From positions 18,623 to 82,622 of the forward strand of contig JAZKXO010000026.1 of the NCBI GenBank assembly GCA_045611685.1: a stretch of 64,000 bases of DNA, given 5' to 3'. The position numbers were made by a program, and so were the translations under genes. Origin of the DNA: Eubacteriales bacterium. Its GTDB lineage: Bacteria > Bacillota > Clostridia > Oscillospirales > CAG-272. Shown here in pieces: positions 6,225-52,704 of the stretch (position 1 is the stretch's first letter; the number at the start of each line of letters is the position of its first letter). The notes under the pieces are model-generated. The model saw only the letters and a list, made by a program, of their open reading frames with translations, ran no database searches and was not told the origin of the DNA.

Positions 6225-6282
6225 TAATGGGGGTGCGGGGGTCGAAGGCCCCCGCACAAAATTACCGAAAAGGAGACGAACG

Positions 6283-8268
<1,986 letters not shown>

Positions 8269-8431
8269 TCGGCGCCATGGGGTGTCCCCCTTTGAGCATA
8301 GAGGCGTACCCATTCCGACTTGCGCGTTCGCGCGGCTTTGAGACATCCGCCCGACGAAGCGATCCCTCCGCGCGTAAAAGAAGATTTACGTGGGGGTGCA
8401 AGCACCCCCACTCCCCCTATAGGAGTGAACT

Positions 8432-29075: not shown

Positions 29076-29340
29076 ACAAAAAGAGAGCCGCCGCACTCCG
29101 TGCAGCAGCTCTGTTTTTCATATAAATACCCACCGTGCCGTGTGAACGGGAAGTTAGAAACCCTGCATTTGCAAGGTTGGTGCCCTCTCCCATCGTTTGT
29201 GCTCCCAACGTCCGCGGTATCGGTCAGATGAGCGATACGCGGGAGGTCTGCATCCCCTCGGGGAAGTCCGGGCTCCACTGGTCTATTGTGGGTTCAATTA
29301 CCCGCCCATCACAAACATAGCAGGCATACGCGCGCGTCTT
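29076..29340 (-). ncRNA. candidate structured RNA (unassigned), or a long structured 3' UTR of the DUF1292 gene, ending in an intrinsic terminator
   Basis: About 260 nt with no credible ORF. Minus-strand helices include GTTTGTG/CACAAAC, CCTCCCGCGTATCG-loop-CGATACCGCGG...GGAG, and CCTTGC-AAAT-GCAGGG. The terminator is AGAGCTGCTGCAC-GGA-GTGCGGCGGCTCT + CTTTTTGT (29112-29076). A second hairpin with T-run lies at 29042-29019. Confidence 0.4.
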
Positions 29341-34744: not shown

Positions 34745-36295
34745 ATGATGACTGAGATCATCATTTCCGCCGCAATTGCTGCGGTGGCTGCGCTTCCGAT
34801 CGGATTTTTCTGTGGCGTGCAGTACCGCCGCCGCGTAGCGGAGGCCGAGATCGGCTCCGCCGAAGCCCAGGCAAGAAAAATACTCGAAGACGGAATCAAA
34901 GCAGCCGAAACGAAGAAAAAAGAAACCCTGCTTGAAGCAAAAGAGGAAATCCTCAAAACGAAAAACGAATTCGACCGCGAGCTCAAGGAGCGCCGCGCCG
35001 AAATCTCCCGCCAGGAAAAGCGCATCGCCACCAAGGAAGAAAACCTCGACCGCAAGGCCGAGAACCTTGAGAAAAAGGACGAAACGCTGACCCGCAAGAT
35101 CAAGGAAACGACCGAACTGCAAGAGGAGATCGAAGGGATCAAAAAAGAGCAGTACGAGCAGCTGCAGAAGGTAGCGGGTCTTACCGCCGCAGAAGCGAAG
35201 GCACAGCTCGTTGAGGAAATGACCGAGGAGATCCGCCGCGAGCAGTCCATCCGCCTCACCGAGCTGGAAGCGGAATTCAAGGAAGAAGCCGACGCGAAGG
35301 CGAAAAACATTATCGCACTCGCAATCCAGCGCTGTGCATCCGATCAGGTAGCGGAGGCGACGGTTTCCGTCGTTGCCCTGCCGAACGACGATATGAAGGG
35401 CCGCATCATCGGCCGCGAGGGACGCAACATCCGCGCGATCGAGCAGATGACCGGCGTCGATCTCATCATCGACGACACGCCCGAGGCGATCACCGTATCG
35501 GGCTTCGATCCCGTACGCCGCGAGGTGGCACGTCTTGCGCTCGAAAAACTCATCTCGGACGGACGTATCCATCCGACGCGCATTGAAGAGACCGTCGAGA
35601 AGGCACGCCGCGAGGTGGATGCCGAGATCAAATCCGCCGGTGAGCGCGCAACGTACGACACGGGTCTGCACGGCTTCCAGCCGGAGATGATAAAACTCCT
35701 CGGCCGTCTGAAATACCGCACGAGCTACGGACAGAACGTCCTTATGCACTCCATCGAAGTATCGCTCCTCTCCGGCATTATTGCCGACGAGCTCGGCTGT
35801 GATTCTACGCTCGCAAAGCGCGCGGGCCTTCTCCACGATATCGGTAAGGCACTGACGCAGGAGGTCGAGGGATCGCACGTACAGCTCGGCGTTGAGCTTG
35901 CAAAACGCTTCCGCGAATCGGCGGACGTGATCCACGCGATCGAGGCGCACCACGGCGACGTGGAGCCGAAGACGCTCGTTGCCATGATCGTGCAGGCGGC
36001 AGACGCAATCTCTGCGGCACGCCCCGGCGCACGCCGTGAGAATCTTGAAAACTACATCAAGCGTCTGACGAAGCTCGAAGAGATCGCCAACTCCTACAAG
36101 GGCGTTGAGAAGAGCTTCGCGATCCAGGCCGGCCGTGAGCTGCGCATCATGGTCAAGCCCGAGATGGTAAAGGACGACGATATGGCACTGGTTGCCCGCG
36201 AGATCGCCCAGAAGATCGAAGGGGAGCTTGAATACCCCGGACAGATCAAGGTAAGCATCATCCGCGAAAACCGCGCCACGGACTACGCAAAATAA
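34745..36295 (+). CDS. rny: ribonuclease Y
   Basis: N-terminal TM segment, coiled coil, KH domain ([15 protein letters not shown]) and HD domain (LLHDIGKA...HH). 516 aa. Confidence 0.97.
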
Positions 36296-36396
36296 AAGAA
36301 AACGGCATCCGCGCCGGGTAAGGGTGATTATGATTTCCCGTGCCCGGCGCGGTTTTTCCGCGCGGGGCGCGTGCCCTTTCAGAAAGGATTCATTTT

Positions 36397-37167
36397 ATGA
36401 AAATTCTCGTTCTCGGCGACGTCGTCGGCGCCGCCGGCACACAGTATCTCGCAGAAGGGCGCAGACTCTGGCGTCTCCGTGATTCGCTCCGTGCCGATCT
36501 CGTGATCGTCAATGCGGAGAACGCCGCACCGGGCAACGGCACCACGCCCGACGCCGCACGCGCGCTCTTTGATGCGGGCGCGGACGTTCTGACCGGCGGC
36601 AATCACTCTTTTCGCCGCCGCGAGTTCTACACGATGCTCGATGACGAAAGATACGTTCTGCGCCCGGCGAACTACCCGTCAGAAGCGCCCGGGCACGGCT
36701 TTTGCATCACCGAATGCGCCGGTTGGCGCCTGCTCGTCATAAACCTCGCGGGATGTGTGTACATGGAGCCGCTCGCGTCTCCGTTTGAGACGGCTGACCG
36801 TATCCTCAAGGAAAACGAAGGACGCTTTGACGGAGCGGTCGTGGATTTCCACGCGGAGGCGACGAGTGAGAAGATCGCGCTTGCGCGTTATCTGGATGGG
36901 CGCGTCTCCGCCGTGTTCGGCACGCACACGCACGTTGCCACCGCAGATATACAGATCCTCCCGGGCGGCACGGGCTATATCACCGACGTCGGCATGTGCG
37001 GCTCGCACGCAGGTATTCTCGGCGTGGCGACCGAGCCGATCCTCAAAAAATTCCTCACAAAAATGCCGTCGTATTTTACCCCTGCCGAGGGGGAGTGTGC
37101 GCTTCACGGCGCGCTCTTTGAGATCGAAAACGGAAAATGCCTCCGCGCCGAGGCGATAAACGCCTGA
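36397..37167 (+). CDS. ymdB: TIGR00282/YmdB-family metallophosphoesterase
   Basis: MKILVLGDVVGAAG...NAENAAPGNG...GNH...GTHTHV, in the conserved position downstream of rny. Confidence 0.9.
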   Translation: MKILVLGDVVGAAGTQYLAEGRRLWRLRDSLRADLVIVNAENAAPGNGTTPDAARALFDAGADVLTGGNHSFRRREFYTMLDDERYVLRPANYPSEAPGHGFCITECAGWRLLVINLAGCVYMEPLASPFETADRILKENEGRFDGAVVDFHAEATSEKIALARYLDGRVSAVFGTHTHVATADIQILPGGTGYITDVGMCGSHAGILGVATEPILKKFLTKMPSYFTPAEGECALHGALFEIENGKCLRAEAINA

Positions 37168-41632: not shown

Positions 41633-41745
41633 CGGGGGAAACTTTTTACAAAAAAGCTTCCCCCGTACCCCTTTCAAAAAACCTTTATACTGAAAAACAG
41701 AATCACGTCTGTGCGCGGTTTTTGCACAGGCGTGATTTTTTATCG
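41633..41745 (+). terminator. composite 3' module after the kinase gene; its hairpin is the left copy of a 45-nt perfect direct repeat
   Basis: Palindrome GGGGGAAACTTTTTACAAAAAAGCTTCCCCC (41633-41663), linker gtacccctttcaaaaaacctttatactgaaaaacag, then aatcacgtctgtgcgcggtttttgcacaggcgtgattttttatcg (41701-41745). Confidence 0.85.
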
Positions 41746-42045
41746 GAAGCAATTTCCGCAGAATGAATATCCCTCATTGATCAGCGCATCTGCCGCGCCT
41801 TCGTAATACCGGCGGTTTTCGTCGTGAATCAGAGCGGCAGTACCGCAGGTTATTTTGTGGATTTTCTTCGAACGGATGTTGAGAATGTATTCGTCTTGTA
41901 CGCTCTCCGTGTATTCGCGCTCGGGTTCGCTTCGGATAAGTATAATTTCTTCCTTGGCACAGGAGTTAAATAAAAGGAAAAAGAAGACAACAACCCATAT
42001 ACACCCTTTTCTCCACCGGGATGCGTGAGCTTTTTTTATTAGCAT
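41740..42045 (-). CDS. small membrane/lipoprotein with C-terminal Cys-rich metal-binding-like motif
   Basis: 101 aa with an N-terminal hydrophobic segment ending in NSC. The C-terminal KIHKITCGTAALIHDENRRYYEGAADALINEGYSFCGNCFR resembles the Ada-type Zn-binding tails of small Firmicute proteins. Confidence 0.55.
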   Translation of the reverse strand: MLIKKAHASRWRKGCIWVVVFFFLLFNSCAKEEIILIRSEPEREYTESVQDEYILNIRSKKIHKITCGTAALIHDENRRYYEGAADALINEGYSFCGNCFR

Positions 42046-42079
42046 TTCCCCTCGCCTCGCAAATAGTTTTTATTGCATT

Positions 42080-42121
42080 ATAACACCGTGCGGTGTTATT
42101 TGTCAATGCCGAACGGTGTTT
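42080..42121. promoter_or_regulatory. candidate operator sites in the divergent promoter region of the XRE gene
   Basis: Perfect palindrome ATAACACCG-TG-CGGTGTTAT (42080-42099), plus a third half-site CGAACGGTGTTT (42110-42121). Confidence 0.5.
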
Positions 42122-42164
42122 TTACGTATAATAACTTTATATAATAGATCTGTGAGGTTATTAT

Positions 42165-42368
42165 ATGTACGTCTACAAACGTATACGGGATCTACGGGAA
42201 GATCACGACAAAACGCAGAAAGAAATTTCTTCGTTTTTGAATATGCATCTGACCGTCTATCAGCGCTATGAGCGCGGAGAAAGAGAACTTCCTTTATGGG
42301 CGGCGATTAAACTGGCAGATTATTACCACGTCTCGCTCGATTATCTGGTCGGGCGAACGGATAAATAG
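42165..42368 (+). CDS. XRE-family helix-turn-helix transcriptional regulator (67 aa)
   Basis: MYVYKRIRDLREDHDKTQKEISSFLNMHLTVYQRYERGERELPLWAAIKLADYYHVSLDYLVGRTDK, a canonical Cro/C1 HTH with the DYLvGR tail. Confidence 0.85.
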   Translation: MYVYKRIRDLREDHDKTQKEISSFLNMHLTVYQRYERGERELPLWAAIKLADYYHVSLDYLVGRTDK

Positions 42369-42400
42369 AAGAACGCCCCGCAAAAACTCTATATAATACA

Positions 42401-42445
42401 AATCACGTCTGTGCGCGGTTTTTGCACAGGCGTGATTTTTTATCG
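42401..42445. terminator. terminator hairpin, right copy of the 45-nt perfect direct repeat (also ends the endolysin gene)
   Basis: Identical to 41701-41745 and exactly 700 bp away from it. Confidence 0.85.
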
Positions 42446-42446
42446 T

Positions 42447-42965
42447 TCATATTTCGAAATATCCTCGGTTCAGCCGCGCGTGTGAAAAATTCGCGCACCC
42501 GGCCGTCCCGTACTGCCAAACCGTCGGCGAAAACGTAAGCGCACGCGCTTCGGTCACGCCCCACGAAAGGAGCCACACGGGATACGGCGAGGGCGTCTTT
42601 ACCGCCGCGGGCGGGGCGGCGAGCATCGGGGCAAACCCGGCTGCCGAAACGGCACGGAGAAACTTCTCCGCTTCGGGCATCTGTCTATTCTCCTCCGCGC
42701 GGCAGGCCGCCCAGAGGCGAACGCGCTCGCGAAGCGGTTTAATAAGCGAGAGAAACAGCAGAGCCTCCCTTCGCCCGTCCGCGAAAAGCTCGTGATACAC
42801 GCCGACGGCGATCCCCGCCCGCTCGGCGGCTATGATATTCTCACTAAAACGCTGATCGGGGACAAGGCCCGCCGATACGCGGATGAGCGCAAACGCGATG
42901 CCGGCGGCTTCGGCGCCCGCCCAATCAAAGCAGCCGTCACGGGCACAAACGTCGATCCCGTTCAC
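42447..42965 (-). CDS. GH25-type muramidase (endolysin), catalytic domain only
   Basis: MNGIDVCARDGCFDWAGAEAAGIAFALIRVS...GVYHE...VWQYGT follows the GH25 pattern GIDVSxxQGxIDW...IR...YH...WQY. Confidence 0.7.
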   Translation of the reverse strand: MNGIDVCARDGCFDWAGAEAAGIAFALIRVSAGLVPDQRFSENIIAAERAGIAVGVYHELFADGRREALLFLSLIKPLRERVRLWAACRAEENRQMPEAEKFLRAVSAAGFAPMLAAPPAAVKTPSPYPVWLLSWGVTEARALTFSPTVWQYGTAGCANFSHARLNRGYFEI

Positions 42966-43219
42966 GGAAAATCCTCCCTTTCGAGATCGTGCAGGCGGAT
43001 CTCATGCGCCTGCAGCTGCCGCCCGTGCGCCTCGATTTCCGCGTACATCTCCTCGTGCTCGCGATCGCGCTCTTTACGATCCCGCGAGAGTGCGTCACCC
43101 ATGTTTTTGACCGTTACGTCAAGCCTTGTGAGAACGGAGGACAACTTGAACCCGAGCGTTCCGACGGTAATGAGAAAGCCGCCGAGCGTAATAAGCCCCG
43201 CTACGATCGCCCAGGTCAT
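42962..43219 (-). CDS. putative holin / lysis-associated membrane protein
   Basis: 85 aa with one N-terminal TM segment (WAIVAGLITLGGFLITVGTLGF) and a charged coiled-coil tail. It overlaps the endolysin start by 4 nt. Confidence 0.45.
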   Translation of the reverse strand: MTWAIVAGLITLGGFLITVGTLGFKLSSVLTRLDVTVKNMGDALSRDRKERDREHEEMYAEIEAHGRQLQAHEIRLHDLEREDFP

Positions 43220-44460
43220 GAAATCTCCTCAAGAGAGCCCCGAGGCACGCCGTAGATAATGACGGCACCCGAGCCACCCGAACCGGAGTACGTATCCGTC
43301 TCGACAGCGCGGCCGCCGCCCGCACCGATTCCGCCCGCCACGCCGTCCGTGCCGGGGATAGTACCGCTTTTCTTCGTGCCGCTGATACCGCCTTCACCGA
43401 AGTAGGAATCGGCGCCTTTTTCCGTCGTGCCGACCTCTGCCGTAAAAATACCGACGACGGCAGGCGTTGCTTCTTGGCTTACACTTTCAAGGCCGCCCTC
43501 GCCGCCGGGGACAGAGAAGCCGTCAAAGGATGTACTGCCACCCCTCATTCCCGCAAAAGAGGAGTAGGTCGTTTTCTTCCGCTTTTCACCGCCTACACCG
43601 ACCGTAACGGCTACAGGCTTCATCGGCAAGGGGAGATGCGCAAGCACTGCCATACCGCCCGCCGAGCCGCCCGTACCTCCCGCAGAAGCGGCACCCGATC
43701 CGCCCGCGCCGATGAGAACGACCGTATAAAGCCCGTCCGCCGTGGGATATGCCGCGGGATCGAACGTACCGCTTTCGGTAATGCGGCAAAGCTCTTTCAT
43801 GCCGGGGAAAGCGTCAAGGAAAAAGCGGTACTGACCGTCGCCGCAGAGAAGCGTATCCGCGCCTGCATCGGTGCGGAACACGTTTGCCGCTTTCACGAGC
43901 TGTGCCGCATCCGCGCCGTCAAAATAATCACAAAGCGCGGTCTCGTAGCGGGCGAGCATCTCCTCGACCTCCAGCCGATTGAGGATGTAGTCCGCGCGCG
44001 GACGCAGATCGGTGAGATACGTCCCCTCGATAAACGTCTCGCCCGCCGGGATGAACACGGCGGCAAGCGGGATCTCTCTCACCGTATCGGTATAGGTGCA
44101 AATGGGTGCCGTCGGCATTTCGGCCGCCGTACCCGTGAGAATGGCGCAGCGCATCTCACGCGCCGTAAGATCCAGTCTCAAAACGACGCGGTCGATTCTG
44201 GGGAGCGCGGCATCCGCCTCGGCAAGGGAAAGCGAAAGCGCCGCCGTGTTTCGGTACGTGTATCCGTCGATCACCGCCGTGCCCGCGGCTACGTCGACCG
44301 CCATACCGCCGAGAGACGACGGCGTAACGGTAAGAGAATCGGCGCTCGTTACACCGTTTGAAACGTACGCCGCCCGCTCGGCGGCAAAATCCTCCGCTGT
44401 GTACACGCGATCCGGCACGCCGTCGATCGCCACAGCATTGAACGGAAATGATTTCTCCAT
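43216..44460 (-). CDS. phage tail fibre / receptor-binding-like protein with C-terminal glycine-rich domain
   Basis: 414 aa with an N-terminal FNAVAIDGVPDRVYTAEDFA... and C-terminal GAGGSGAASAGGTGGSAGG...GGIGAGGG repeats. Confidence 0.5.
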   Translation of the reverse strand: MEKSFPFNAVAIDGVPDRVYTAEDFAAERAAYVSNGVTSADSLTVTPSSLGGMAVDVAAGTAVIDGYTYRNTAALSLSLAEADAALPRIDRVVLRLDLTAREMRCAILTGTAAEMPTAPICTYTDTVREIPLAAVFIPAGETFIEGTYLTDLRPRADYILNRLEVEEMLARYETALCDYFDGADAAQLVKAANVFRTDAGADTLLCGDGQYRFFLDAFPGMKELCRITESGTFDPAAYPTADGLYTVVLIGAGGSGAASAGGTGGSAGGMAVLAHLPLPMKPVAVTVGVGGEKRKKTTYSSFAGMRGGSTSFDGFSVPGGEGGLESVSQEATPAVVGIFTAEVGTTEKGADSYFGEGGISGTKKSGTIPGTDGVAGGIGAGGGRAVETDTYSGSGGSGAVIIYGVPRGSLEEIS

Positions 44461-44496: not shown

Positions 44497-45480
44497 TCAG
44501 CGGGTGAGTCGAACGGATACCGTATGACGGATGCCCGTCTCGTCCGCACAAACGGTCTTTTCCTCGCAAAAAGCCGTCCCGACGATGCCGAAAAGATCGT
44601 CCTCAATGAGACATTCTTCCCCCACGTGCAAGGATGCCGCCGCGGCCGCTGACACGTCGATGCTGACCGAACGGATGCCGCGGTGCTCGGCGAGCACGCG
44701 TTTGCCCTCCGCTCTGAGGGTCAAAAGATACTCTTCGTCCGACGGGAAAAGCGAGGGTGCGATCTTATACGCATTATGATATATCTCCGAAAGCGGAGCT
44801 GCCGCGTCGTCGATGCCGTCGTCGAACAGCCCCACCGCCGAAACGGTAACGGTGCGCCCGTCGTAACCCTTCACGATTACCGAGTTTTTGTAATTTTCGC
44901 CCTCCGTTACGCGCACGCCGCCCGTAAGATCACCGCCGCCGCGCGACAGACGGAGCTTTGCCGCCGTGCGGCTTTGCGCGGCGAACAGAAAACCGCCGTC
45001 CGTCACGGCAAGGCGCATACCGAGCCCCGATGCACGACAGACGGATTTCATCGCGGAAAGAAGCGATCCGCCGCCGATCACCATATCCACCGCCTCGGGA
45101 AAGCCGTACTCGACCGTCGAGAGCGGCGCGGGGAGAACGGATGCCCCCCACTCGCTCGAAAGACCGAGGAGAACCGTCTCCGCATCGCCCGAAACGCGGC
45201 GGTACTCCGGCATCTGCCGCCCTTCAAAATAGGAAAGGATCCCGCGCCCCTTGACCGTGGCAATGCCCTCTGCGGCATCCTCCCTTATTTCACCGACGGT
45301 AAAGGCTCCGATCCCGGGGATCACAAGAACGTCCCCCGCCATAAAGCGGCGGGCATCGGAGAGGGGCACGGCAAGCGTACACGCCCCCGGCGCCGAAAAC
45401 GACTCCGAGGCGGTAACCGTAAGTGCCGCATCAGAGATGCTTTTGAGAGTAAGCGAAGAATTAAAAATCCGAATATCCAT
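44497..45480 (-). CDS. phage tail structural protein (Siphovirus Gp37-like)
   Basis: It starts MDIRIFNSSLTLKSISD... at ATG 45480 (RBS GAGGAGGGG). Its position is between the Dit-like and fibre genes. The family call is from memory of the Gp37-like N-terminal pattern. Confidence 0.45.
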   Translation of the reverse strand: MDIRIFNSSLTLKSISDAALTVTASESFSAPGACTLAVPLSDARRFMAGDVLVIPGIGAFTVGEIREDAAEGIATVKGRGILSYFEGRQMPEYRRVSGDAETVLLGLSSEWGASVLPAPLSTVEYGFPEAVDMVIGGGSLLSAMKSVCRASGLGMRLAVTDGGFLFAAQSRTAAKLRLSRGGGDLTGGVRVTEGENYKNSVIVKGYDGRTVTVSAVGLFDDGIDDAAAPLSEIYHNAYKIAPSLFPSDEEYLLTLRAEGKRVLAEHRGIRSVSIDVSAAAAASLHVGEECLIEDDLFGIVGTAFCEEKTVCADETGIRHTVSVRLTR

Positions 45481-45490
45481 AAGCCCCTCC

Positions 45491-46312
45491 TCAGTGATAA
45501 AGCGGCGTGATGGCAACCGATACCGCCGCCGTGCCGTCGCCCTCGCTCTGCCAGGTAAGCTTGTTCTCCCCCGGCTCAAGGGCGAACATCACGCTGTCCA
45601 CGGTGAGCCCACCGATCGCGGACGCGTCCCCGACCGTTACCGTTTTTTTCGAGGGGCGCGTGTCGATCACCATAGAGGCACCGATCGGCAAGGGATAAAC
45701 GACGGAGATCTTCTCCCCCGACTCTGCCGTCACGGTGAAAGAGGTGAGATCGCTCCACTCTGCCAGGACAGTGAGAACGAACCCGCACGGCACGTCGCCG
45801 GGGTTTTCTACCGTAATCTCGCCCTCGCCCGTGCTCAGGGCAAATACCGTGCCCTCGTCCATACGAAAGGGGAAGACGAGTTTCCCCGTCCAGCCGCGCT
45901 CGGACGCTGTCTCCACCGGCGCTGAAAAATACGCGGCGGTGGCACTTTTTGCCTCGGCATAAACGCTAAAGAACGCCGCCTCGTCTCCGTTGAGCGGTGC
46001 TTCGTGCGCGAAAACGGGCGCCTGTTTCGCCGTCAGATCAATGCTCCGTTCGCCCACCCGAAGAGTGAACCCGCCTCTGTTCGTTACGATACGGCGAAGG
46101 CGGCGAGAGAGAAGCTCCTTCTCGGCCGCGCGCGAAGTCGGCGTTCCCCCGACGGGCAGAATATAGCCCGAAAACGTAACCGAACGCCCCGCCGTGCGAT
46201 CACCCGCAAGCTTTGCCGCCCCCGCATCGAAATCGTGCAGAACGTATCCGCCGCGACCGAAAATGACTGTGTCCCGTCCGTTTGTAATCGAAATCGTATC
46301 GCATACCGTCAT
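45491..46312 (-). CDS. phage tail family protein (distal tail protein-like)
   Basis: 273 aa starting MTVCDTISITNGRDTVIFG.... The C-terminal ...FALEPGENKLTW... is typical of siphovirus tail-component proteins. Its start overlaps the upstream stop (ATGA at 46309-46312). Confidence 0.5.
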   Translation of the reverse strand: MTVCDTISITNGRDTVIFGRGGYVLHDFDAGAAKLAGDRTAGRSVTFSGYILPVGGTPTSRAAEKELLSRRLRRIVTNRGGFTLRVGERSIDLTAKQAPVFAHEAPLNGDEAAFFSVYAEAKSATAAYFSAPVETASERGWTGKLVFPFRMDEGTVFALSTGEGEITVENPGDVPCGFVLTVLAEWSDLTSFTVTAESGEKISVVYPLPIGASMVIDTRPSKKTVTVGDASAIGGLTVDSVMFALEPGENKLTWQSEGDGTAAVSVAITPLYH

Positions 46313-46818
46313 CCGAACACCACCTTCCCCATAACGCCCGCGTCGTCCGATTCCGCGATAAGCGAAAACTTCCACGCGGAATCTCTTTCGGGAGAAAGCG
46401 AAAGCTCTGCCCCCGACGAAGCCGACGCGATCAGGGAAAAGACGACCTCGCCGCCGCCTGCCGACTCGGGAATTTCCGCAACGAGCACGATGCGCACCCG
46501 CGCATGCCGCCCCGCGTCCGTCTTGCCGCCGAGATATACGACGGATCCGTCCGTGGGCGAGCCGGTAGCCGCCGCCAGAACGCGCGGATACAGGCGGACG
46601 AGCCTGCCCTCGATTCTGACTCTTGCGCCGTAGCGCACCGAGCGGACGACCTCGCCGTCCCAGCCCTTGATCTCGTGCACCTTCGCACTGTACTGAAGCT
46701 TCACGCCGCCCTTCGTCGCCCCGGCGTAAAAGCGGAGCGAACGCGCCGCAGCCTCACTCACCTCAGCGGGCGCTATATACAATCGCCCCGCACCGAGGGC
46801 GTAATATTTCTCTTCCAT
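46309..46818 (-). CDS. putative major tail (tube) protein
   Basis: 169 aa starting MEEKYYALGAGRLYIAPAEV..., with RBS GGAAGGAGA. The call rests on size and position after the head-tail joining genes. Confidence 0.4.
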   Translation of the reverse strand: MEEKYYALGAGRLYIAPAEVSEAAARSLRFYAGATKGGVKLQYSAKVHEIKGWDGEVVRSVRYGARVRIEGRLVRLYPRVLAAATGSPTDGSVVYLGGKTDAGRHARVRIVLVAEIPESAGGGEVVFSLIASASSGAELSLSPERDSAWKFSLIAESDDAGVMGKVVFG

Positions 46819-46874
46819 AGATCTCCTTCCTACACATACAACTGTCAAACAAAGCGCGGAGACCGAACCCGAGC

Positions 46875-46964
46875 GTTTCCGGTATTCCGCCCTAGGCGGA
46901 ACGCTGTCTCTCTTGACAGCGCGGAAACCTCGCCGAGTAATCCGTGCCAAAGCACGGATTACTC
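46875..46964 (-). promoter_or_regulatory. structured intergenic element: three-way junction plus 13-bp hairpin between the head-tail joining genes and the tail gene
   Basis: On the + strand, GTTTCCG (46875-46881) pairs with CGGAAAC (46922-46928). This closes the hairpins TTCCGCC-CTA-GGCGGAA and CGCTGTC-TCTCTT-GACAGCG. It is followed by GAGTAATCCGTGC-CAAA-GCACGGATTACTC (46935-46964). Confidence 0.5.
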
Positions 46965-47321
46965 GCCGCACCTTCCTTGTATCTCAAAACCTGCCTGCAG
47001 ATAATAGAGCCCACATCCGCGAACGTAGCCGCCGCGGCCGCCCTCCTTCGTCCCGCAGATGACAAGCGAATCAGCACCGATCCCGACGACACCCGTGTCG
47101 CCGTCTGCGAGAAGCGCCCGCTGCAGTGCCGAAATCTCCGACGCCGCCGCATCGGGCGAGCGATGGAACACGCGCACTTCAAATCTTGCCGTTCTGAGCG
47201 CGCCGTCGCCCCGTCCGGGGTAATACCGATACACCGCCGAGGGGGAAAGACTTTTCCCCGGCGCGGGCGAAAGCGGCACGGTAAGTGCCGACGATGCGGC
47301 TTTCACTACGCGATCATGCAT
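46959..47321 (-). CDS. phage head-tail joining / tail-completion-like protein
   Basis: 120 aa. The call is based on position only. Confidence 0.35.
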   Translation of the reverse strand: MHDRVVKAASSALTVPLSPAPGKSLSPSAVYRYYPGRGDGALRTARFEVRVFHRSPDAAASEISALQRALLADGDTGVVGIGADSLVICGTKEGGRGGYVRGCGLYYLQAGFEIQGRCGE

Positions 47322-47619
47322 CGGGGCACCCCTCCTCTACGTAGATTCTCTCACATTTCACACGCCAAATCCTGCCAAGATCGACCGGCACGAGCATCCG
47401 ATACACGGCGTCCCCGCGCGTGATCGTCATCCCGCGGCGAAAGCCGCCCACGGGGGTATATCTCGCGGGGATAAGAGCGAGCACAGTCGCCGACGCGCGG
47501 TCGAGATCGTCCTCCATGATTTCCTCCGCCGTGCGGTGTGAGATGACCGCCATGACCGTGCCCACACTCTCGCCGTCCTTGTTCTTTAAGATGAACGTGC
47601 GCAAAAGACGACGCATCAT
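47314..47619 (-). CDS. phage head closure / head-tail adaptor-like protein
   Basis: 101 aa. The call rests on position and size; its start overlaps the upstream stop. Confidence 0.4.
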   Translation of the reverse strand: MMRRLLRTFILKNKDGESVGTVMAVISHRTAEEIMEDDLDRASATVLALIPARYTPVGGFRRGMTITRGDAVYRMLVPVDLGRIWRVKCERIYVEEGCPDA

Positions 47620-47936
47620 CGAGATCCCCCCCGTCTGCCGCCCGGATGGCGGATGGCGTACAGCTGACGCATCACCGAGTCGCTGTATCCGTCCAGGTAC
47701 GCCTCGGTCGCGCCCGAGACGGCGCGGGATTTTACCCCCGCACCGTCCAGTTTCCCATAGTCCTCCGCCACCATCTGTGAAAGCAGAAAATCCGGCACGC
47801 GCTCCTCGGCTCTCAATCGGCAGAAGGCGCGAACGTATGCCTCGGCATCCGCGAGAAGCGTGTGGATGAGGGCGTCATCCGTCTCATCCGTCCCGTCAAG
47901 CCCCAGCCGCATACGCATTTCCTTTACTGTAATCAT
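47616..47936 (-). CDS. phage gp6-like head-tail connector protein
   Basis: MITVKEMRMRLGLDGTDETDDALIHTLLADAEAYVRAFC matches the usual vKxhLRvd...D.li..li.aA pattern. Confidence 0.6.
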   Translation of the reverse strand: MITVKEMRMRLGLDGTDETDDALIHTLLADAEAYVRAFCRLRAEERVPDFLLSQMVAEDYGKLDGAGVKSRAVSGATEAYLDGYSDSVMRQLYAIRHPGGRRGGSR

Positions 47937-47966
47937 CGTTTTCCGTCCTTTCCCGTTTCAAAGATA

Positions 47967-47978
47967 GAACAAATGTTC
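47967..47978. promoter_or_regulatory. GAAC-N4-GTTC palindrome (Cheo/LexA-box-like), copy 1
   Basis: GAACAAATGTTC within tAGAACAAATGTTCTttttgg, between the capsid stop (47987) and the connector start (47936). Confidence 0.55.
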
Positions 47979-47986
47979 TTTTTGGA

Positions 47987-49015
47987 TCAGAGAGAGACGA
48001 CGGCGCTTTTCAGAACGAGGCCGTTCTCGTCGGCTTCTGCAACGGCGATGCGGTTTGCGTTCGCCTTCTTAATCGGGGACGTGCCGTCCCATGCCTCAAA
48101 GGAGGAAACGTCATCGCCGAGAAGCGGCGCATCCGCGTCGTAGAGGACGTAGAGGGCGTTCTCGTCGGCGCTCTTGCCGGAAACGGTAAGAGTGATCTCG
48201 CCGTCTGCGGTCTCAGCGGTAACGGTCAAGGCCGGTGCCGCCTCGCCGAGGATGACGGAGGAGGTGTCGTCCACCAGAGCGATCACGCCGTGGCGCTCGT
48301 AGACGATTGTGTTCTCCTTCTTCTCGATGTCGCGGCTCTGCTCAAGGCCTGCCTCGCGCTTGACGAAGAATTTGACAGCAGCCTTTTCGGTGATGATGAC
48401 CTTGCCCGCCGGCACGAGCTTGGAGAAGAGCACCGGAATACCGCACAGCGTACCGAACTGACCACTGTACACGATCTCGCCCTGATGCGCGGAGATGAAA
48501 TCGGGATCACGGCGGATCGCGGTGCGGCCGTCCGCACCCATAAGGATAAAGAGCCCGTCCTCGACCTCGCGGCCGATGTTGCCGAGTGCCTCGACGATAT
48601 CCGTGTAGGTGAGCGTCTCACCTGCGATCGCGTGGCGGTTCTTGATCTGCTTCAGCTGATCGAAATACTCGACGCGAAGCTGATTTGCCATCACGTCAGC
48701 GGCACCGGCAAGCGCCACGTCGATGAGGGCGGGATCCTGCATCGCTTCCACGTCGTTGTAGCGGAAGGTCTGCTGATAACGCTTTACGGTATAACTCTCC
48801 GGTGTGAAGGAGATAGAGCCTGCGGCGGAGTTTGCCTTACCGCCCTCCAGCGTCTCCACGGTACCGTTGTAGGTATAGCGGTTGATGATTTTGGTGAGAC
48901 CCGCACCCTCCGAGAGAGAGTCGTCCACCGTCATAAGGGAACGAACCTCGAGCTTGGAGTTGAGGATCTCGGTCAGCTTTGCTTCAAGTACGCTGTTTTC
49001 ATAAACTGTGTTCAT
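47987..49015 (-). CDS. phage major capsid protein
   Basis: 342 aa located after the scaffold gene. The N-terminal region MNTVYENSVLEAKLTEILNSKLEVRSLMTVD...YTYNGTVETL is capsid-like. The C-terminal ~90 aa look like an extra Ig-like or decoration domain. Confidence 0.7.
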   Translation of the reverse strand: MNTVYENSVLEAKLTEILNSKLEVRSLMTVDDSLSEGAGLTKIINRYTYNGTVETLEGGKANSAAGSISFTPESYTVKRYQQTFRYNDVEAMQDPALIDVALAGAADVMANQLRVEYFDQLKQIKNRHAIAGETLTYTDIVEALGNIGREVEDGLFILMGADGRTAIRRDPDFISAHQGEIVYSGQFGTLCGIPVLFSKLVPAGKVIITEKAAVKFFVKREAGLEQSRDIEKKENTIVYERHGVIALVDDTSSVILGEAAPALTVTAETADGEITLTVSGKSADENALYVLYDADAPLLGDDVSSFEAWDGTSPIKKANANRIAVAEADENGLVLKSAVVSL

Positions 49016-49076
49016 AGAATACTACCTTTCATAAAAGAAATATTGTTGTTTCGGAGTTTTGGGGCATTCCCCATAC

Positions 49077-49589
49077 TCACATCATCTCTGCGAGCTTTGC
49101 GATCGGCGTCTCACGGATGATCTTCCCCGTAAGTGCCGAAGCCTCACCCATACCGGGGCGGATCCCCTCCGTTTTTTCGCGGATTGCACGGGCTGCCGCG
49201 GCATCGATGGCGCCCGCCAGCATCTCCACACGGGCAGAAAGTATCTCGTCGGTCAGATCGGTGTCATAGGGGGTAAGAAGGAGCGACACCATCTCCTCCC
49301 CGAGAGAGTGCGCGCGGAGCATTTTCTCACAGCGGATCTCCGTCTCGCGGCGCGCCGCACGCTCGTCCGCCCGAGCGAGCGCTTCCCTGAGCGATTCGAT
49401 CTCCGCCGTCATCTCGACCGCCGCGGCTGCCGTCTCCCGTTCCCTTTCGGCTTCCCACGAAAGACGCGCCTCACTGAGTCGCGCCGCAAGATCGGCGGCT
49501 GTAAACACCTCCGCCGGTGCATCTTCGACTGCGGGCACGTCGATCGGATCTGCCGTCTCGCTCTCTTTTTCAAAAATCTCGTCCGTCAT
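49077..49589 (-). CDS. phage scaffolding protein
   Basis: 170 aa, acidic and predicted helical/coiled-coil, located between the portal and capsid genes. Confidence 0.55.
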   Translation of the reverse strand: MTDEIFEKESETADPIDVPAVEDAPAEVFTAADLAARLSEARLSWEAERERETAAAAVEMTAEIESLREALARADERAARRETEIRCEKMLRAHSLGEEMVSLLLTPYDTDLTDEILSARVEMLAGAIDAAAARAIREKTEGIRPGMGEASALTGKIIRETPIAKLAEMM

Positions 49590-50833
49590 TCTTTATCCTC
49601 CGATAGAGATTCCTCGTCCCTTATGCGCTGCATTTCCTCGTCTGCATTCTCCACAAACGGCAGATGCTCAACGACGGTGCGGCGGGAGAGGATTCCCTGA
49701 AGCTTCGTCGCCATATCGGCGGCTTCCTCCGGCATGCCGGGCAAGTTTCGGGTGAAGATCATGCGGATAGAATCCGCGTCGTACCCGCCGCCGGAAAGAT
49801 TGAGAAGCCGAGCGACAAGACGCCATCGCTTTATAAGGCCGCGGCGGAAGTACTGCTCCGTTACCGCCACGCGGTTTTCGAAATTGAGCATACGCCAGCG
49901 GATCGCCACGCCCGAGAGCGTGTTGCCCGTGAGCGTTTCCTCCGCCATATCGACCGTGCCGGAGAAGCGGTAGATGTCCTTGGCGATTCTCGCCTTCAAA
50001 TTTTCGATGTAGGCGTCGTTCACCGTTTTCGTCAGCCATTTTGCGTCCCCGCCCTCATCGAGCAGGATCACGCGGTCGCGGCGAATGCGGGCAAGGTCCT
50101 CCTCATCCGTACCGCCCATACCGGAAATGGCAAGATAACTGTCCGCAAACAGTTCGAAATCGTTGACAGACGCGCTCTCCAGACGGTTGTACGCATCAAT
50201 GAGCGAGATGACCGGCTCAAAATCGCCGAGCCTGTCGCGGTTGTTCTCGTAAAAGATCACGGGAACCTCCCCGAAGAGATGCTCCGTGCGGCTCTCCAAG
50301 CGGAGAGTCTGCCCGTCGTAGCGGTAGACGGTCATCGCCGCCTCATCGTACACCTCGACGGTGATATCCTCGGCATCGCGGCGGCGATAGTAGCGTATCG
50401 CGCCGAGAAGACGGGGCTCAACCGCGTCGTCGTACACGGGGATAACGGTATCGGCATCGATCGGCGTGAATCGGGGCTTCGTTACGTCGTCGTACCAGAC
50501 GAGCTCACAAGCCCTGCCCGAGACGGACAGATCCCGCGCGAGCGCGTTGTTCGCAAAGCGCTCGTGATTCGCCGCTCCCACGTTTTTCAGCATCGCGAGC
50601 GTCTTTTCATCAGCAGTGTACGAAACACCGCGTCCCATGAAATAGCCGACCGTGCAGTCGGTGATGTTGCGGCAGAAATTGTTGACGAGGCGGTTGTCCG
50701 GCAAATCCGGATCTCTCGCCGCCTTCAAAATATCGTGGCGCCCGAGATAATACGCCTTGAGCTTCATAAGGCGCGGCGCCTCACCCGCCATAAATTCCGT
50801 GAGGCGGGCGAGAATGGTTTTTTCGTTCAGCAT
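49586..50833 (-). CDS. phage portal protein (SPP1 gp6-like)
   Basis: About 415 aa from ATG 50833 (MLNEKTILARLTEFMAGEAPRLMKLKAYYLGRHDIL...), a typical SPP1-type portal N-terminus, located downstream of TerL. Confidence 0.75.
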   Translation of the reverse strand: MLNEKTILARLTEFMAGEAPRLMKLKAYYLGRHDILKAARDPDLPDNRLVNNFCRNITDCTVGYFMGRGVSYTADEKTLAMLKNVGAANHERFANNALARDLSVSGRACELVWYDDVTKPRFTPIDADTVIPVYDDAVEPRLLGAIRYYRRRDAEDITVEVYDEAAMTVYRYDGQTLRLESRTEHLFGEVPVIFYENNRDRLGDFEPVISLIDAYNRLESASVNDFELFADSYLAISGMGGTDEEDLARIRRDRVILLDEGGDAKWLTKTVNDAYIENLKARIAKDIYRFSGTVDMAEETLTGNTLSGVAIRWRMLNFENRVAVTEQYFRRGLIKRWRLVARLLNLSGGGYDADSIRMIFTRNLPGMPEEAADMATKLQGILSRRTVVEHLPFVENADEEMQRIRDEESLSEDKE

Positions 50834-50861
50834 AAGATTCCTTTCTGTAATACCTTTTGGA

Positions 50862-52145
50862 TCAAATCCCCAGCATCCTTTTGGAGATCGTCCGTTTTTG
50901 CCCGCGCGGATGACGGAGCGGCTCCGTTGCATAGCGGAGTGCCGCCATCGCGTCGTCGCGGCCGGGCGCGGGGACGTCGAGCACCTCGCCGCTCTCCCCG
51001 TCCACCTGCCAGCGCCACTCCCGTATCTCCGAGATCACGTTTTCTGCCGACGCGTCGATGACGATCTCCCTCTGCTTCAGATACTCGATCTGTCCGAGAA
51101 TACTTCCCGGCTCCTTTTTCACGCCCTCGGCGCGAAATCCCGCCTTTCGCCACATCCGTATCCGATCCGGCTCGGCGCTGTCACAGTACATCGGCAAATT
51201 TTGGGGGAAGCCCGCCTCCTTTGCCATCTCAATGATCTCCGCCGTGTCTCTTTCACGCACGTACAGCTCACGGAGAATGTAGAAAACCCCGTCCCGCATC
51301 CCGACAAGGAGAAGACAGTTGGCGTGATTGTAGCCGAAATCCTGCGCCAGCCAGGCGCTGTCGTAAAATCCGACGTCCTTTTCTACGTTTGCCACTCGCC
51401 ACCTTGTCAAAATCAAGCCCTCGCGGGCCGATCCCCACTCGCCGAGCGCGTACACGGCGTACCCCACCGGATCTTCTCGCTCTCTCCGCTCCATGCGCTT
51501 TTTGAAATCCGCGTCCGAGAACGCGTTGCTTTTATACGTCGAGTGATGAATAAATACGTCCTCACTCGGCGGTGCGTCAAAAAACCGTTTTTTCAGAAAA
51601 TGGTTTGCCGAGACCGGATTGAACGTCATCGTGATCTGGTAATACAAAAAGGGGTTCACCGCCCCAAGATCCCCACGGAGACGGTCGTCGAGAATGTCGA
51701 GGTCCGAGGAGGTAAGCTCCGTTGCCTCCTCGCACCAGATCCATGTCAGTTTCCCGGATTGGAACGCCACGCTCTTTACTCTCTCGCGCTGGCTGTCTTC
51801 CTTCATTCCGCGAAACATGATCCGACTGCCCGTCACGAGGGAGGTCAGGGAAAGCGGCTCCTTCGTTATCGCCCAGAACTCGTCCGCCCGATCGCCGAAG
51901 ATACGCCTGACCGCGCCGGAGAGTTCCTCAAACACCGAGAAGCGGCAGGCGTTCTCCGTCTTGCGGATCACAAGCAGATTCGCCCCGAAATACCGCATAT
52001 CCGACAGTTTCATTATAAAATCCTGTGCCACATTGAAGCTTTTCCCCGATCCCGCACCGCCGTAGAGAATGCGGTAACGCGCACGGGTTCGGTTTGCCTC
52101 ACGGAAGGACTCGTTGAAAGGAACGATTCGTTCACACGTATTCAC
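50862..52145 (-). CDS. phage terminase large subunit (PBSX-type)
   Basis: Walker A RYRILYGGAGSGKSFNVAQDF, Walker B/coupling region WIWCEEATE, and a C-terminal nuclease half. A probable GTG start at 52145 overlaps the TerS stop. Confidence 0.85.
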   Translation of the reverse strand: MNTCERIVPFNESFREANRTRARYRILYGGAGSGKSFNVAQDFIMKLSDMRYFGANLLVIRKTENACRFSVFEELSGAVRRIFGDRADEFWAITKEPLSLTSLVTGSRIMFRGMKEDSQRERVKSVAFQSGKLTWIWCEEATELTSSDLDILDDRLRGDLGAVNPFLYYQITMTFNPVSANHFLKKRFFDAPPSEDVFIHHSTYKSNAFSDADFKKRMERREREDPVGYAVYALGEWGSAREGLILTRWRVANVEKDVGFYDSAWLAQDFGYNHANCLLLVGMRDGVFYILRELYVRERDTAEIIEMAKEAGFPQNLPMYCDSAEPDRIRMWRKAGFRAEGVKKEPGSILGQIEYLKQREIVIDASAENVISEIREWRWQVDGESGEVLDVPAPGRDDAMAALRYATEPLRHPRGQKRTISKRMLGI

Positions 52146-52464
52146 AGCGAATGATGAGCGACGGCGCACCGCCGTCCGCACGGCCGGCGGACGCCATAAG
52201 GCGGAGATTTTCAAGCGCACGGATCCGTTCTCCGGGCTTTATCTCGCCCGTCTCGTCGAACGCCATCCGCTCGTACTCCCGACGGATCGAGGCGAGCACC
52301 GCCTCGCTGAGGCGTGCAGAAACAAGCCGATCAACCTCGTCCCTCGCATCTTTAAGAAGCGCGTACGCCTCGCCGCGCGTAATCCCTGCCGATACCGCCG
52401 CCCCCGGAAGATTGTAATCGCGAGCAAATCTCTCGAGAAACCGCCGCCTTTTCTCGTTTGTCAT
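52132..52464 (-). CDS. phage terminase small subunit (HTH-like N-terminus)
   Basis: 110 aa from ATG 52464 (MTNEKRRRFLERFARDYNLPGAAVSAGITRGEAYALL...), with RBS AAAGGAGAG, immediately upstream of TerL. Confidence 0.55.
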   Translation of the reverse strand: MTNEKRRRFLERFARDYNLPGAAVSAGITRGEAYALLKDARDEVDRLVSARLSEAVLASIRREYERMAFDETGEIKPGERIRALENLRLMASAGRADGGAPSLIIRCEYV

Positions 52465-52496
52465 AAACGCATCTCTCCTTTTCAACGCACCCAAAA

Positions 52497-52508
52497 GAAC
52501 ATTTGTTC
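52497..52508. promoter_or_regulatory. GAAC-N4-GTTC palindrome (Cheo/LexA-box-like), copy 2, in the TerS leader
   Basis: GAACATTTGTTC within aaaAGAACATTTGTTCTttttgg. The 8-bp arms AAAAGAAC/GTTCTTTT are perfect. It lies 33 nt upstream of the TerS ATG. Confidence 0.55.
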
Positions 52509-52562
52509 TTTTTGGCGTAAAATGATAACCGCCACACGGCGGTATCACGAAACTGTATGCGT

Positions 52563-52591
52563 ATTATATCACTGTTCACGCAAGTTGTCAA
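52563..52591 (-). promoter_or_regulatory. perfect consensus sigma-A promoter of the phage-like operon
   Basis: On the minus strand: TTGACA (52591-52586), a 17-nt spacer, then TATAAT (52568-52563). The leader contains the hairpin GATACCGCC-GTG-TGGCGGTTATC (52546-52524). Confidence 0.75.
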
Positions 52592-52704
52592 TGGCAGAAA
52601 GCGGAAATATTGCACAAATAGTCTCCGCTGATTTTGTGCGAATTGCACAACAATAAAAGCGAACCCACACTCGCCCGCCCCCGCATAGCCAAAATTCGCC
52701 GCTT

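Follow-up and report, generated by a model that had tools for sequence, protein, structure and literature searches.

It is well established that some gene transfer agents (GTAs) and defective prophages respond to the SOS response. As a rule, they are controlled indirectly or through a repressor of their own: in the case of RcGTA, LexA acts indirectly, and PBSX possesses its own repressor (Xre). In the Bacillus thuringiensis tectivirus GIL01, the late promoter P3 is repressed by LexA and gp7 via tandem LexA boxes, and the LexA-like protein gp6 activates it (PMC6182141). The LexA operator of Gram-positive bacteria has the consensus CGAACRNRYGTTYC (PMC2248561), and the corresponding dyad was recovered from the lexA promoters of 39 of 40 Firmicutes by phylogenetic footprinting (PMC2248561). 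In C. difficile, GAAC-N4-GTT(T/C) is present at lexA, recA, ruvC and uvrB (PMC4234289). In C. thermocellum, the LexA sites obtained by DNA affinity purification sequencing (DAP-seq) include a core identical to GAACAAATGTTC (PMC8457756, supplement 26), and uvrA, uvrB and the gyrase B gene are LexA targets (PMC8457756). In this study, we analyzed a 64-kb stretch of DNA from a Eubacteriales bacterium (hereafter, the window). In this window, a phage-derived operon of about 10 kb runs on the minus strand from a small terminase-like gene (terS) to a GH25 lysin gene, and it possesses two palindromic boxes of the type GAAC-N4-GTTC. Similar boxes are found in related loci. We consider it rather probable that the boxes are LexA-type operators, which would make a domesticated GTA-like element SOS-inducible. 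The assignment of LexA as the binding protein is based on the match of the motif and on its placement.

LexA-type boxes in the window and in related loci

The two boxes and the promoter of the operon are as follows.

47967-47978, no strand assigned: post-capsid box, core GAACAAATGTTC, within the 50-nt spacer between the capsid stop codon and the adaptor start codon
52497-52508, no strand assigned: leader box, core GAACATTTGTTC, inside an extended palindrome specific to the window, CCAAAAGAACATTTGTTCTTTTTGG (52491-52515)
52563-52591, minus strand: sigma-70 consensus promoter, TTGACA-17 nt-TGaTATAAT, 12/12 consensus positions, with the TG of an extended -10

When the whole window was scanned, GAAC-N4-GTTC was found at these two sites only, and both matches are perfect and intergenic. 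As 20-mers, the sites read AGAACAAATGTTCTTTTTGG at 47966-47985 and AGAACATTTGTTCTTTTTGG at 52496-52515. An earlier reading of this DNA from its letters alone (the sequence-only reading) had located the first copy exactly and the second copy 2 nt too high. It had assigned the first copy to the gap between the capsid and connector genes and the second copy to the terS leader, downstream of a consensus promoter, and both assignments hold. The post-capsid box lies 8 nt past the capsid stop codon and 30 nt ahead of the adaptor ATG (47936). The leader box lies about 32 nt 5′ of the terS ATG (52464), at +50 to +61 from the inferred transcription start of the 12/12 promoter. The two 20-mers are identical at 18 of 20 positions as direct repeats and at 19 of 20 positions as inverted repeats, because the leader copy is a longer palindrome. 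The count of two boxes is not significant alone: the expectation for the window is 1.38, and two or more matches occurred in 34 of 100 shuffles.

Related loci (L numbers) were therefore compared with respect to the number and position of the boxes. Nine loci from metagenome-assembled genomes of Clostridia/Eubacteriales (L001-L009) were found via the capsid protein, which is 72-82% identical, and one viral contig (L010) was also found via the capsid protein. Nine metagenome contigs (L013-L020 and L050) possess a terL that is at least 60% identical; L013 duplicates L009. Assemblies of the relatives include JAZPZY01, JAZQFQ01, JAFUIQ01, JAZSCY01, JBGVKV01, JAFTUH01, JBGVJO01, JAZNHT01 and JAEEYP01. 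All of these loci have the same gene order from terS to the lysin gene, again without a tape-measure gene. Every related locus that includes the relevant DNA possesses a good box, and the boxes are present in upstream or intergenic DNA only. Perfect boxes were found 28 times in 24.6 kb of non-coding DNA, where 0.35 are expected from the base composition, as against no box in 120 kb of coding DNA, where 1.7 are expected on the same basis. Conserved variants with one mismatch, which end in GTTT, GTAC or GATC, are also present. Because the loci are related, the 28 boxes are not independent events; they span at least seven lineages that differ in architecture. Thus, the non-randomness of the boxes follows from their confinement, in the relatives, to non-coding DNA at homologous positions.

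Distant relatives (L021-L053), in which terL is 48-58% identical, do not possess LexA-type boxes. The boxes are therefore specific to a subfamily. Where the distant relatives include enough upstream DNA, direct-repeat arrays are found upstream of the promoters instead. Arrays of short units lie just 5′ of the terS promoters of L029, L030 (about 6220-6330), L037, L039 and L042. They consist, for example, of five TGCAACT units with a 10-bp period (L029 and L030), of four TTGATAGT units, or of AATGGCAGT repeats, and the array of L029 and L030 begins right after a sequence read as a tRNA 3′ end.

Of the 13 positions that the Gram-positive LexA consensus specifies, no more than three are mismatched in any of the 28 distinct boxes of the family, and one or two in most of them. 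In fully palindromic boxes, the mismatches are at the outermost positions. That the core agrees with the LexA operator of Firmicutes had been proposed from the sequence, and it does: in the window, GAAC-N4-GTTC is perfect in both boxes, and the mismatches to CGAACRNRYGTTYC are 2 of 13, both outermost. The family boxes share with the Cheo box of Firmicutes (Bacillus and Clostridia) the palindromic core, a purine after GAAC and a pyrimidine before GTTC, as well as the presence of one to three boxes per control region, which overlap or follow the promoter. They differ from the Firmicutes consensus in that position 1 is mostly A, not C, and in that an A-rich flank extends to -5. Moreover, the usual LexA targets are repair genes, whereas the target here is a phage-derived structural operon with one box kilobases inside it.

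The symmetrized half-site logo of the family boxes is aaaa(A/C)GAACA(a/t). In these genomes, which have about 57% G+C, A accounts for 45-61% at half-site positions -5 to -1, and positions -7 to -9 show a weak preference for C only. The TTTTTGG flank, which had been described as a conserved extension of the palindrome, is specific to this genome. The family keeps only an A-rich flank at -5 to -1, and we rejected TTTTTGG as a part of the motif because the shared feature is solely the A/T-richness of these positions. In L001, the same CCnAAAAAGAAC is present on both sites. The near-identity of the two copies in the window is due to the A/T-rich extension and to lineage-specific similarity.

Placement of the boxes at the promoter and inside the operon

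The position of the boxes differs according to the lineage, and the following architectures were distinguished.

Architecture A (window, L001): promoter, leader hairpin and a box 19 nt past the stem; second box after the capsid gene
Architecture A′ (L006, L008): like A, plus a box about 24 nt 5′ of the -35; hairpin-box gap of 21 nt, or 19 nt if the longer stem given by the scan tool is used (L006)
Architecture B (L002-L005, L007, L014, L015, L020, L050): a box fills the promoter spacer, TTGACA[GAACAnnTGTTC]TTGyTGTATAAT (seen in L002-L005, L007, L015 and L050); second box, GAACAAATGTAC, at about +5 to +17; third box, GAACAAATGTTT, at the terL-portal junction, 20 nt past a terminator-like hairpin
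Architecture C (L009/L013, L016, L017): a box abuts the -35; second box 34-38 bp downstream
Architecture D (L018/L019): boxes over and just past the -10; perfect box at the terL-portal junction
L010: degenerate post-capsid box, GAACATTTGATC

In most relatives, a box overlaps the promoter or follows it closely, that is, in the spacer, over the -10 or at +5 to +25. In the window and L001, the promoter-proximal box is at about +50, so that it agrees with this placement only as a possible roadblock. Counterparts of the leader box are present at the same leader position in L001, L006 and L008. In architecture B, the arms GAACA and TGTTC are invariant and the centre varies (AGGT, ATAT or AAGT), as is expected of a dimer that contacts two half-sites. 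The motif is constant while its position shifts, and untranscribed sites are included. This argues for the site of a DNA-binding repressor and not for an RNA structure.

Three further elements surround the promoter in the window.

52518-52543, minus strand: terminator-like leader hairpin, ACCGCCgtgtGGCGGT and then TATCATTTTA, between the promoter and the leader box
52610-52618, no strand assigned: upstream half-site (T)GTGCAA, TTGCACAAA, which ends 19 nt 5′ of the -35
52634-52650, no strand assigned: upstream palindrome TTGTGC-N5-GCACAA, TTGTGCGAATTGCACAA, kept in architectures A, B and C

The 12/12 promoter was called also in L002 and L006, and it was read by eye in other loci having upstream DNA. 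In the window, L001, L006 and L008, the perfect promoter and the hairpin with its T-tract stand within about 45 nt, and ATACAGTTTC is conserved in the initially transcribed region. The distance from the end of the hairpin stem to the box core is 19 nt in the window. L001, L006 and L008 retain the hairpin, though its loops differ and its stem is shifted, and it is missing altogether from the other lineages. On the upstream side, the spacing between the half-site and the -35 is 19-20 nt across architectures A, B and C, and the palindrome is about 45-62 nt upstream. The palindrome and the half-site were also seen in the upstream regions of L001-L005, L009, L015 and L016. A second regulator may bind to the elements at 52610-52650. 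From the -35 to the box, the window and L001 share 86.5% identity, as compared with 69% for terS and 79% for the capsid gene; in this pair, conservation is higher in the regulatory region than in the coding DNA. The upstream GTGCAA sites and the conserved leader (ATACAGTTTC, hairpin and T-tract) together indicate at least one further factor, which is possibly an activator or antiterminator encoded elsewhere.

The sequence-only reading had left the mid-operon position of one copy unexplained. This copy is not peculiar to the genome of the window but a recurrent feature of the family: four or five loci have a box after the capsid gene, two other lineages have one after terL, and the post-capsid box is perfect also in L001, L006 and L008. 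Because it recurs, the mid-operon box requires an explanation. A candidate internal promoter at 47961-47932 was rejected because its -10 overlies the adaptor start codon. A GC hairpin with a T-tract, followed by a box at 19-21 nt, is found in two non-homologous contexts, namely the leader of the window, L001, L006 and L008 and the terL-portal junction of L002-L005, L007, L014 and L020. The near-equal spacing in both contexts suggests that a repressor and a weak terminator form a conditional stop. It is conceivable, though doubtful, that the operators are coupled to terminators in such a way that RNA polymerase would be stalled by the bound repressor at or close to a weak terminator, so that termination would become conditional. 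LexA cleavage would then open successive "gates" along the operon, ultimately before the lysis genes. For such coupling, the geometry is not clearly optimal, and the post-capsid boxes have no clear preceding hairpin. A more conservative alternative is a roadblock, or an extra high-affinity site that silences a lethal operon. We know of no earlier description of attenuation that is LexA-gated, roadblock-assisted and distributed over one operon. The mid-operon operators and the terminator-operator pairing are possibly distinctive.

Host LexA as the probable binding protein, and competing explanations

From the sites and their placement, we propose the following model. The phage-derived structural and lysis operon of about 10 kb lacks its own lysogeny or replication module, and it would be vertically inherited. 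In the unstressed cell, a dimeric repressor, most likely host LexA, would occupy the boxes. In most relatives, the repressor inside or beside the sigma-70 promoter would block initiation. In the window, the promoter-proximal box (+50 to +61), just past the leader hairpin, would act as a roadblock, and the mid-operon box (post-capsid in the window, post-terL elsewhere) might be a second checkpoint before the tail and lysis genes. DNA damage would cause LexA cleavage, and the operon would be released. The cluster is thus probably switched on by DNA damage. In this model, we infer LexA binding, repression by this binding, the mid-operon roadblock and SOS induction. Host LexA is the most economical candidate because the boxes match both the consensus and the Clostridial sites and because there is no regulator gene in or beside any related locus. 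Control of this kind has precedents in the late promoter P3 of GIL01 (PMC6182141) and in the unrelated viral contig L075 described below.

Several observations weigh against this model. When LexA (from B. subtilis and E. coli) and RecA were used as tblastn queries against the window and the fetched loci, nothing was found at E values up to 1. In the window, a gyrB-like gene, uvrB and uvrA form a cluster, and no box is present upstream of any of them. For uvrB and uvrA, this absence had been pointed out before and was confirmed by our scan; the only near-match there, GAACGATGGATC, has one mismatch and overlies the start codon of uvrB. In the window and L001, the sole promoter-proximal box, about 50 nt past the start, is at a weak position for a repressor. 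No credible internal promoter was found beside the mid-operon boxes, and their mode of action is conjectural. Furthermore, the leader hairpin and the GTGCAA sites imply control that is unexplained by LexA. It had been proposed that, if host LexA binds here, the operon is wired directly to the SOS response with no phage repressor. The conserved LexA-type sites and the lack of a lysogeny or replication module agree with this proposal; the additional cis-elements (palindrome, half-site and hairpin) point to other inputs, so that it is too simple. The picture of an operon under LexA alone is probably incomplete. In a separate search for LexA homologues, the best 120 matches were all Bacillus proteins.

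Among the alternatives to host LexA, a different repressor or activator with a LexA-like half-site preference survives best. Such a protein could be a paralogue or a truncated LexA-like protein encoded elsewhere, comparable to gp6 of GIL01, and the signal would then be other than, or besides, SOS. The boxless uvrB and uvrA of the window would be explained, and the additional conserved cis-elements show that more than one factor is involved. There is also a precedent, since the LexA homologue of GIL01 binds and activates the late promoter (PMC6182141). However, in its core and inner flanking positions the motif is identical to the canonical LexA site of Firmicutes, and no candidate gene is present in or beside any of the 20 related loci. 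In addition, the motif is constant across hosts in which housekeeping proteins are only about 69% identical, and a universal host factor therefore fits better than an element-specific one. We regard a different regulator as unlikely.

Slightly less probable again is the idea that only the promoter-proximal boxes are operators. In this case, the mid-operon copies would be RNA hairpins with a stabilizing or attenuating effect on the capsid transcript, or they would be neutral remnants left by module shuffling. Phage head operons often have a hairpin after the capsid gene. In L001, L006 and L008, the stem of the post-capsid box is extended by A-rich 5′ and T-rich 3′ flanks, and the absence of a promoter beside the mid-operon boxes would fit as well. 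In the window, however, the post-capsid RNA folds no better than shuffled sequences (z -0.55), and the stems are A/U-rich without a free U-tract. A perfect or near-perfect core with variable flanks is present at two junctions in separate lineages (post-terL in B and D, post-capsid in A). A hairpin would not require the letters GAAC and GTTC. The RNA of the leader box of the window gives a fold of -12.7 kcal/mol, which is absent in L001. We rejected an RNA hairpin or intrinsic terminator as the general function of the boxes, since conservation of the fold is lacking and since, in several lineages, the box is in the untranscribed promoter spacer. When Rfam was searched over the operon at a permissive threshold, only one sub-threshold snoRNA match was obtained, which was taken as chance.

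It is very improbable that the boxes are pac-like sites at which the small terminase starts packaging. The small terminases of pac phages, for example SPP1, recognize repeated sites around the 5′ end of terS that are bent and flanked by A-tracts, and in the present family one box is always just 5′ of terS. Whereas the identity of the TerS protein, which is present in all relatives, is no more than 44-68%, the core does not vary and equals the LexA consensus. The location of a box exactly between the -35 and the -10 in several lineages is a regulatory position, and the second copy shifts between junctions. Finally, chance occurrence of two random 12-mers, for which two matches in 64 kb would be within expectation, has a negligible probability and was rejected as refuted by the comparative data, since both boxes are intergenic, lie in the same operon, are alike at 18-19 of 20 positions and are conserved in relatives, with 28 non-coding boxes versus no coding box.

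Gene content and comparison with known systems

The genes of the operon, in the direction of transcription, and the terminator are as follows.

52132-52464, minus strand: small terminase-like gene (terS), first in the operon, weak Terminase_2 match (E 0.0076), directly before terL
50862-52220, minus strand: terL
49586-50932, minus strand: SPP1-type portal
49077-49589, minus strand: scaffold
47987-49015, minus strand: major capsid
47616-47936, minus strand: head-tail adaptor (connector), followed by two small open reading frames (ORFs)
46309-46971, minus strand: tail-tube-like ORF, about 170 aa
45491-46375, minus strand: Dit
44497-45579, minus strand: Tal-like
43216-44460, minus strand: Gly-rich fibre, followed by an 85-aa ORF
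42447-42965, minus strand: GH25 lysin
42400-42438, no strand assigned: strong hairpin terminator with a 16-pair stem, which closes the operon

The cluster of the window consists of structural, packaging and lysis genes only, and this content fits a domesticated prophage or GTA-like element. Integrase, repressor and replication genes are absent among the ORFs screened across the window, and there is no regulator gene inside the operon or directly 5′ of terS. The cluster of the window does not include a tape-measure gene. In the interval 45491-47321 of the window and in the same interval of L001-L010, tape-measure and chaperone genes are absent between the tube and Dit genes in every lineage. 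A set of adaptor, neck-like, tail-tube-like, Dit, Tal-like and fibre genes without a tape measure is unusual for a siphovirus-type tail module.

On the upstream side, the genes for Dus (dihydrouridine synthase) and pyruvate kinase adjoin terS in the window. The pyruvate kinase gene adjoins the cluster in the window, L002, L003, L005 and L007, and its orientation and the other neighbours differ; in L003 and L005, the neighbours are pyruvate kinase and an antiporter-like membrane protein, the latter read from sequence only. The identity of the capsid proteins (72-82%) equals or exceeds that of pyruvate kinase (69%). The lysin-side flank is a 700-bp helix-turn-helix (HTH) cassette with two unannotated ORFs, followed by the genes for PHP, YmdB and RNase Y. 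At either end of this cassette (41701-42445), the operon terminator recurs as an exact 45-nt direct repeat (at 41701-41745 and at 42401-42445). The cassette encodes a 67-aa Xre-type HTH protein (42165-42368, plus strand) and, divergently, a 101-aa ORF (41740-42045, minus strand). The promoter of the 101-aa ORF is a second 12/12 consensus (42106-42077), whose spacer contains the palindrome AACACCGcaCGGTGTT. The related loci lack a counterpart of this ORF, and an HTH gene was not observed in them.

Further genes of the window are also housekeeping genes, namely those for IF-2, the gyrB-like protein, UvrB, UvrA, MnmE, RNase Y, YmdB and several transporters. The GyrB/ParE-like gene is directly 5′ of uvrB-uvrA (4218-11260), and its score reaches neither the gyrB nor the parE cut-off of NCBIfam. 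The order gyrB-like/uvrB/uvrA recalls the LexA regulon of C. thermocellum, yet it has no Cheo box here. A 6S (SsrS) RNA gene at 29123-29329 (minus strand) is the sole Rfam match above the gathering score in the window. The genes rny (RNase Y) and ymdB are adjacent at 34745-37167, an adjacency that is common in many Firmicutes; recA is not before them, and the upstream genes are on the opposite strand.

The leader resembles in part the late leader of lambda-type phages, in which a strong constitutive promoter (PR′) is followed closely by a terminator that is read through by Q. In the window, L001, L006 and L008, a perfect promoter is likewise followed by a conserved hairpin and T-tract. It differs in that no Q-like gene is nearby and in that the palindrome is downstream of the terminator, not in the promoter.

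The likeness to GIL01 is that structural and lysis genes are under boxes of the host-LexA type without a classical phage repressor, and relatives of the window carry tandem boxes in the late promoter. In contrast, GIL01 is a replicating linear plasmid prophage that needs the co-repressor gp7 and the LexA-like activator gp6, whereas the element of the window is chromosomal, derived from a tailed phage and apparently non-replicative, and genes resembling gp7 or gp6 are not seen in it or beside it. No LexA-like coding sequence was found in the window or the related loci by tblastn, gp7 homology not having been searched directly, and there is no small regulator gene between the promoter and terS or inside the operon.

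With GTAs and defective prophages, the element shares a head-tail-lysis cluster without integrase and replication genes and, probably, a response to DNA damage; it may also share vertical inheritance in a conserved chromosomal neighbourhood. It differs from RcGTA and PBSX in that the boxes are on the structural operon itself and in that a tape measure is absent.

When viral contigs were scanned for TTGACAGAACNNNNGTTC, mostly unrelated or chance matches were obtained, and promoters with a box in the spacer are common in low-GC phage contigs. In one unrelated viral contig of 54% G+C (L075), TTGACA-GAACATACGTTC-TTCTGG-TATAAT at 4478-4525 is directly 5′ of a head operon. This operon begins with a 144-aa and a 565-aa ORF without a Pfam match, which we read as putatively terS-like and terL-like, and continues with a P22-type portal gene and a capsid gene. 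Here, a packaging and head operon seems to have come under a LexA-type box independently.

If host LexA binds the boxes, a family of phage-derived clusters of particle genes in uncultured gut and rumen Clostridia would be tied directly to the DNA-damage response, and antibiotic or oxidative stress in the gut would be linked to lysis of the cells and perhaps to the transfer of genes. Moreover, within the family the operator is found naturally at a range of places relative to one promoter (in the spacer, over the -10, past the start, past the leader terminator and mid-operon), and this series could be used for studying how a repressor site migrates while regulation is kept. LexA control of phage-derived genes is an established principle. 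The type of regulation is well supported but fairly ordinary, and the present case is best filed as a further example of phage-derived operons controlled by SOS boxes.

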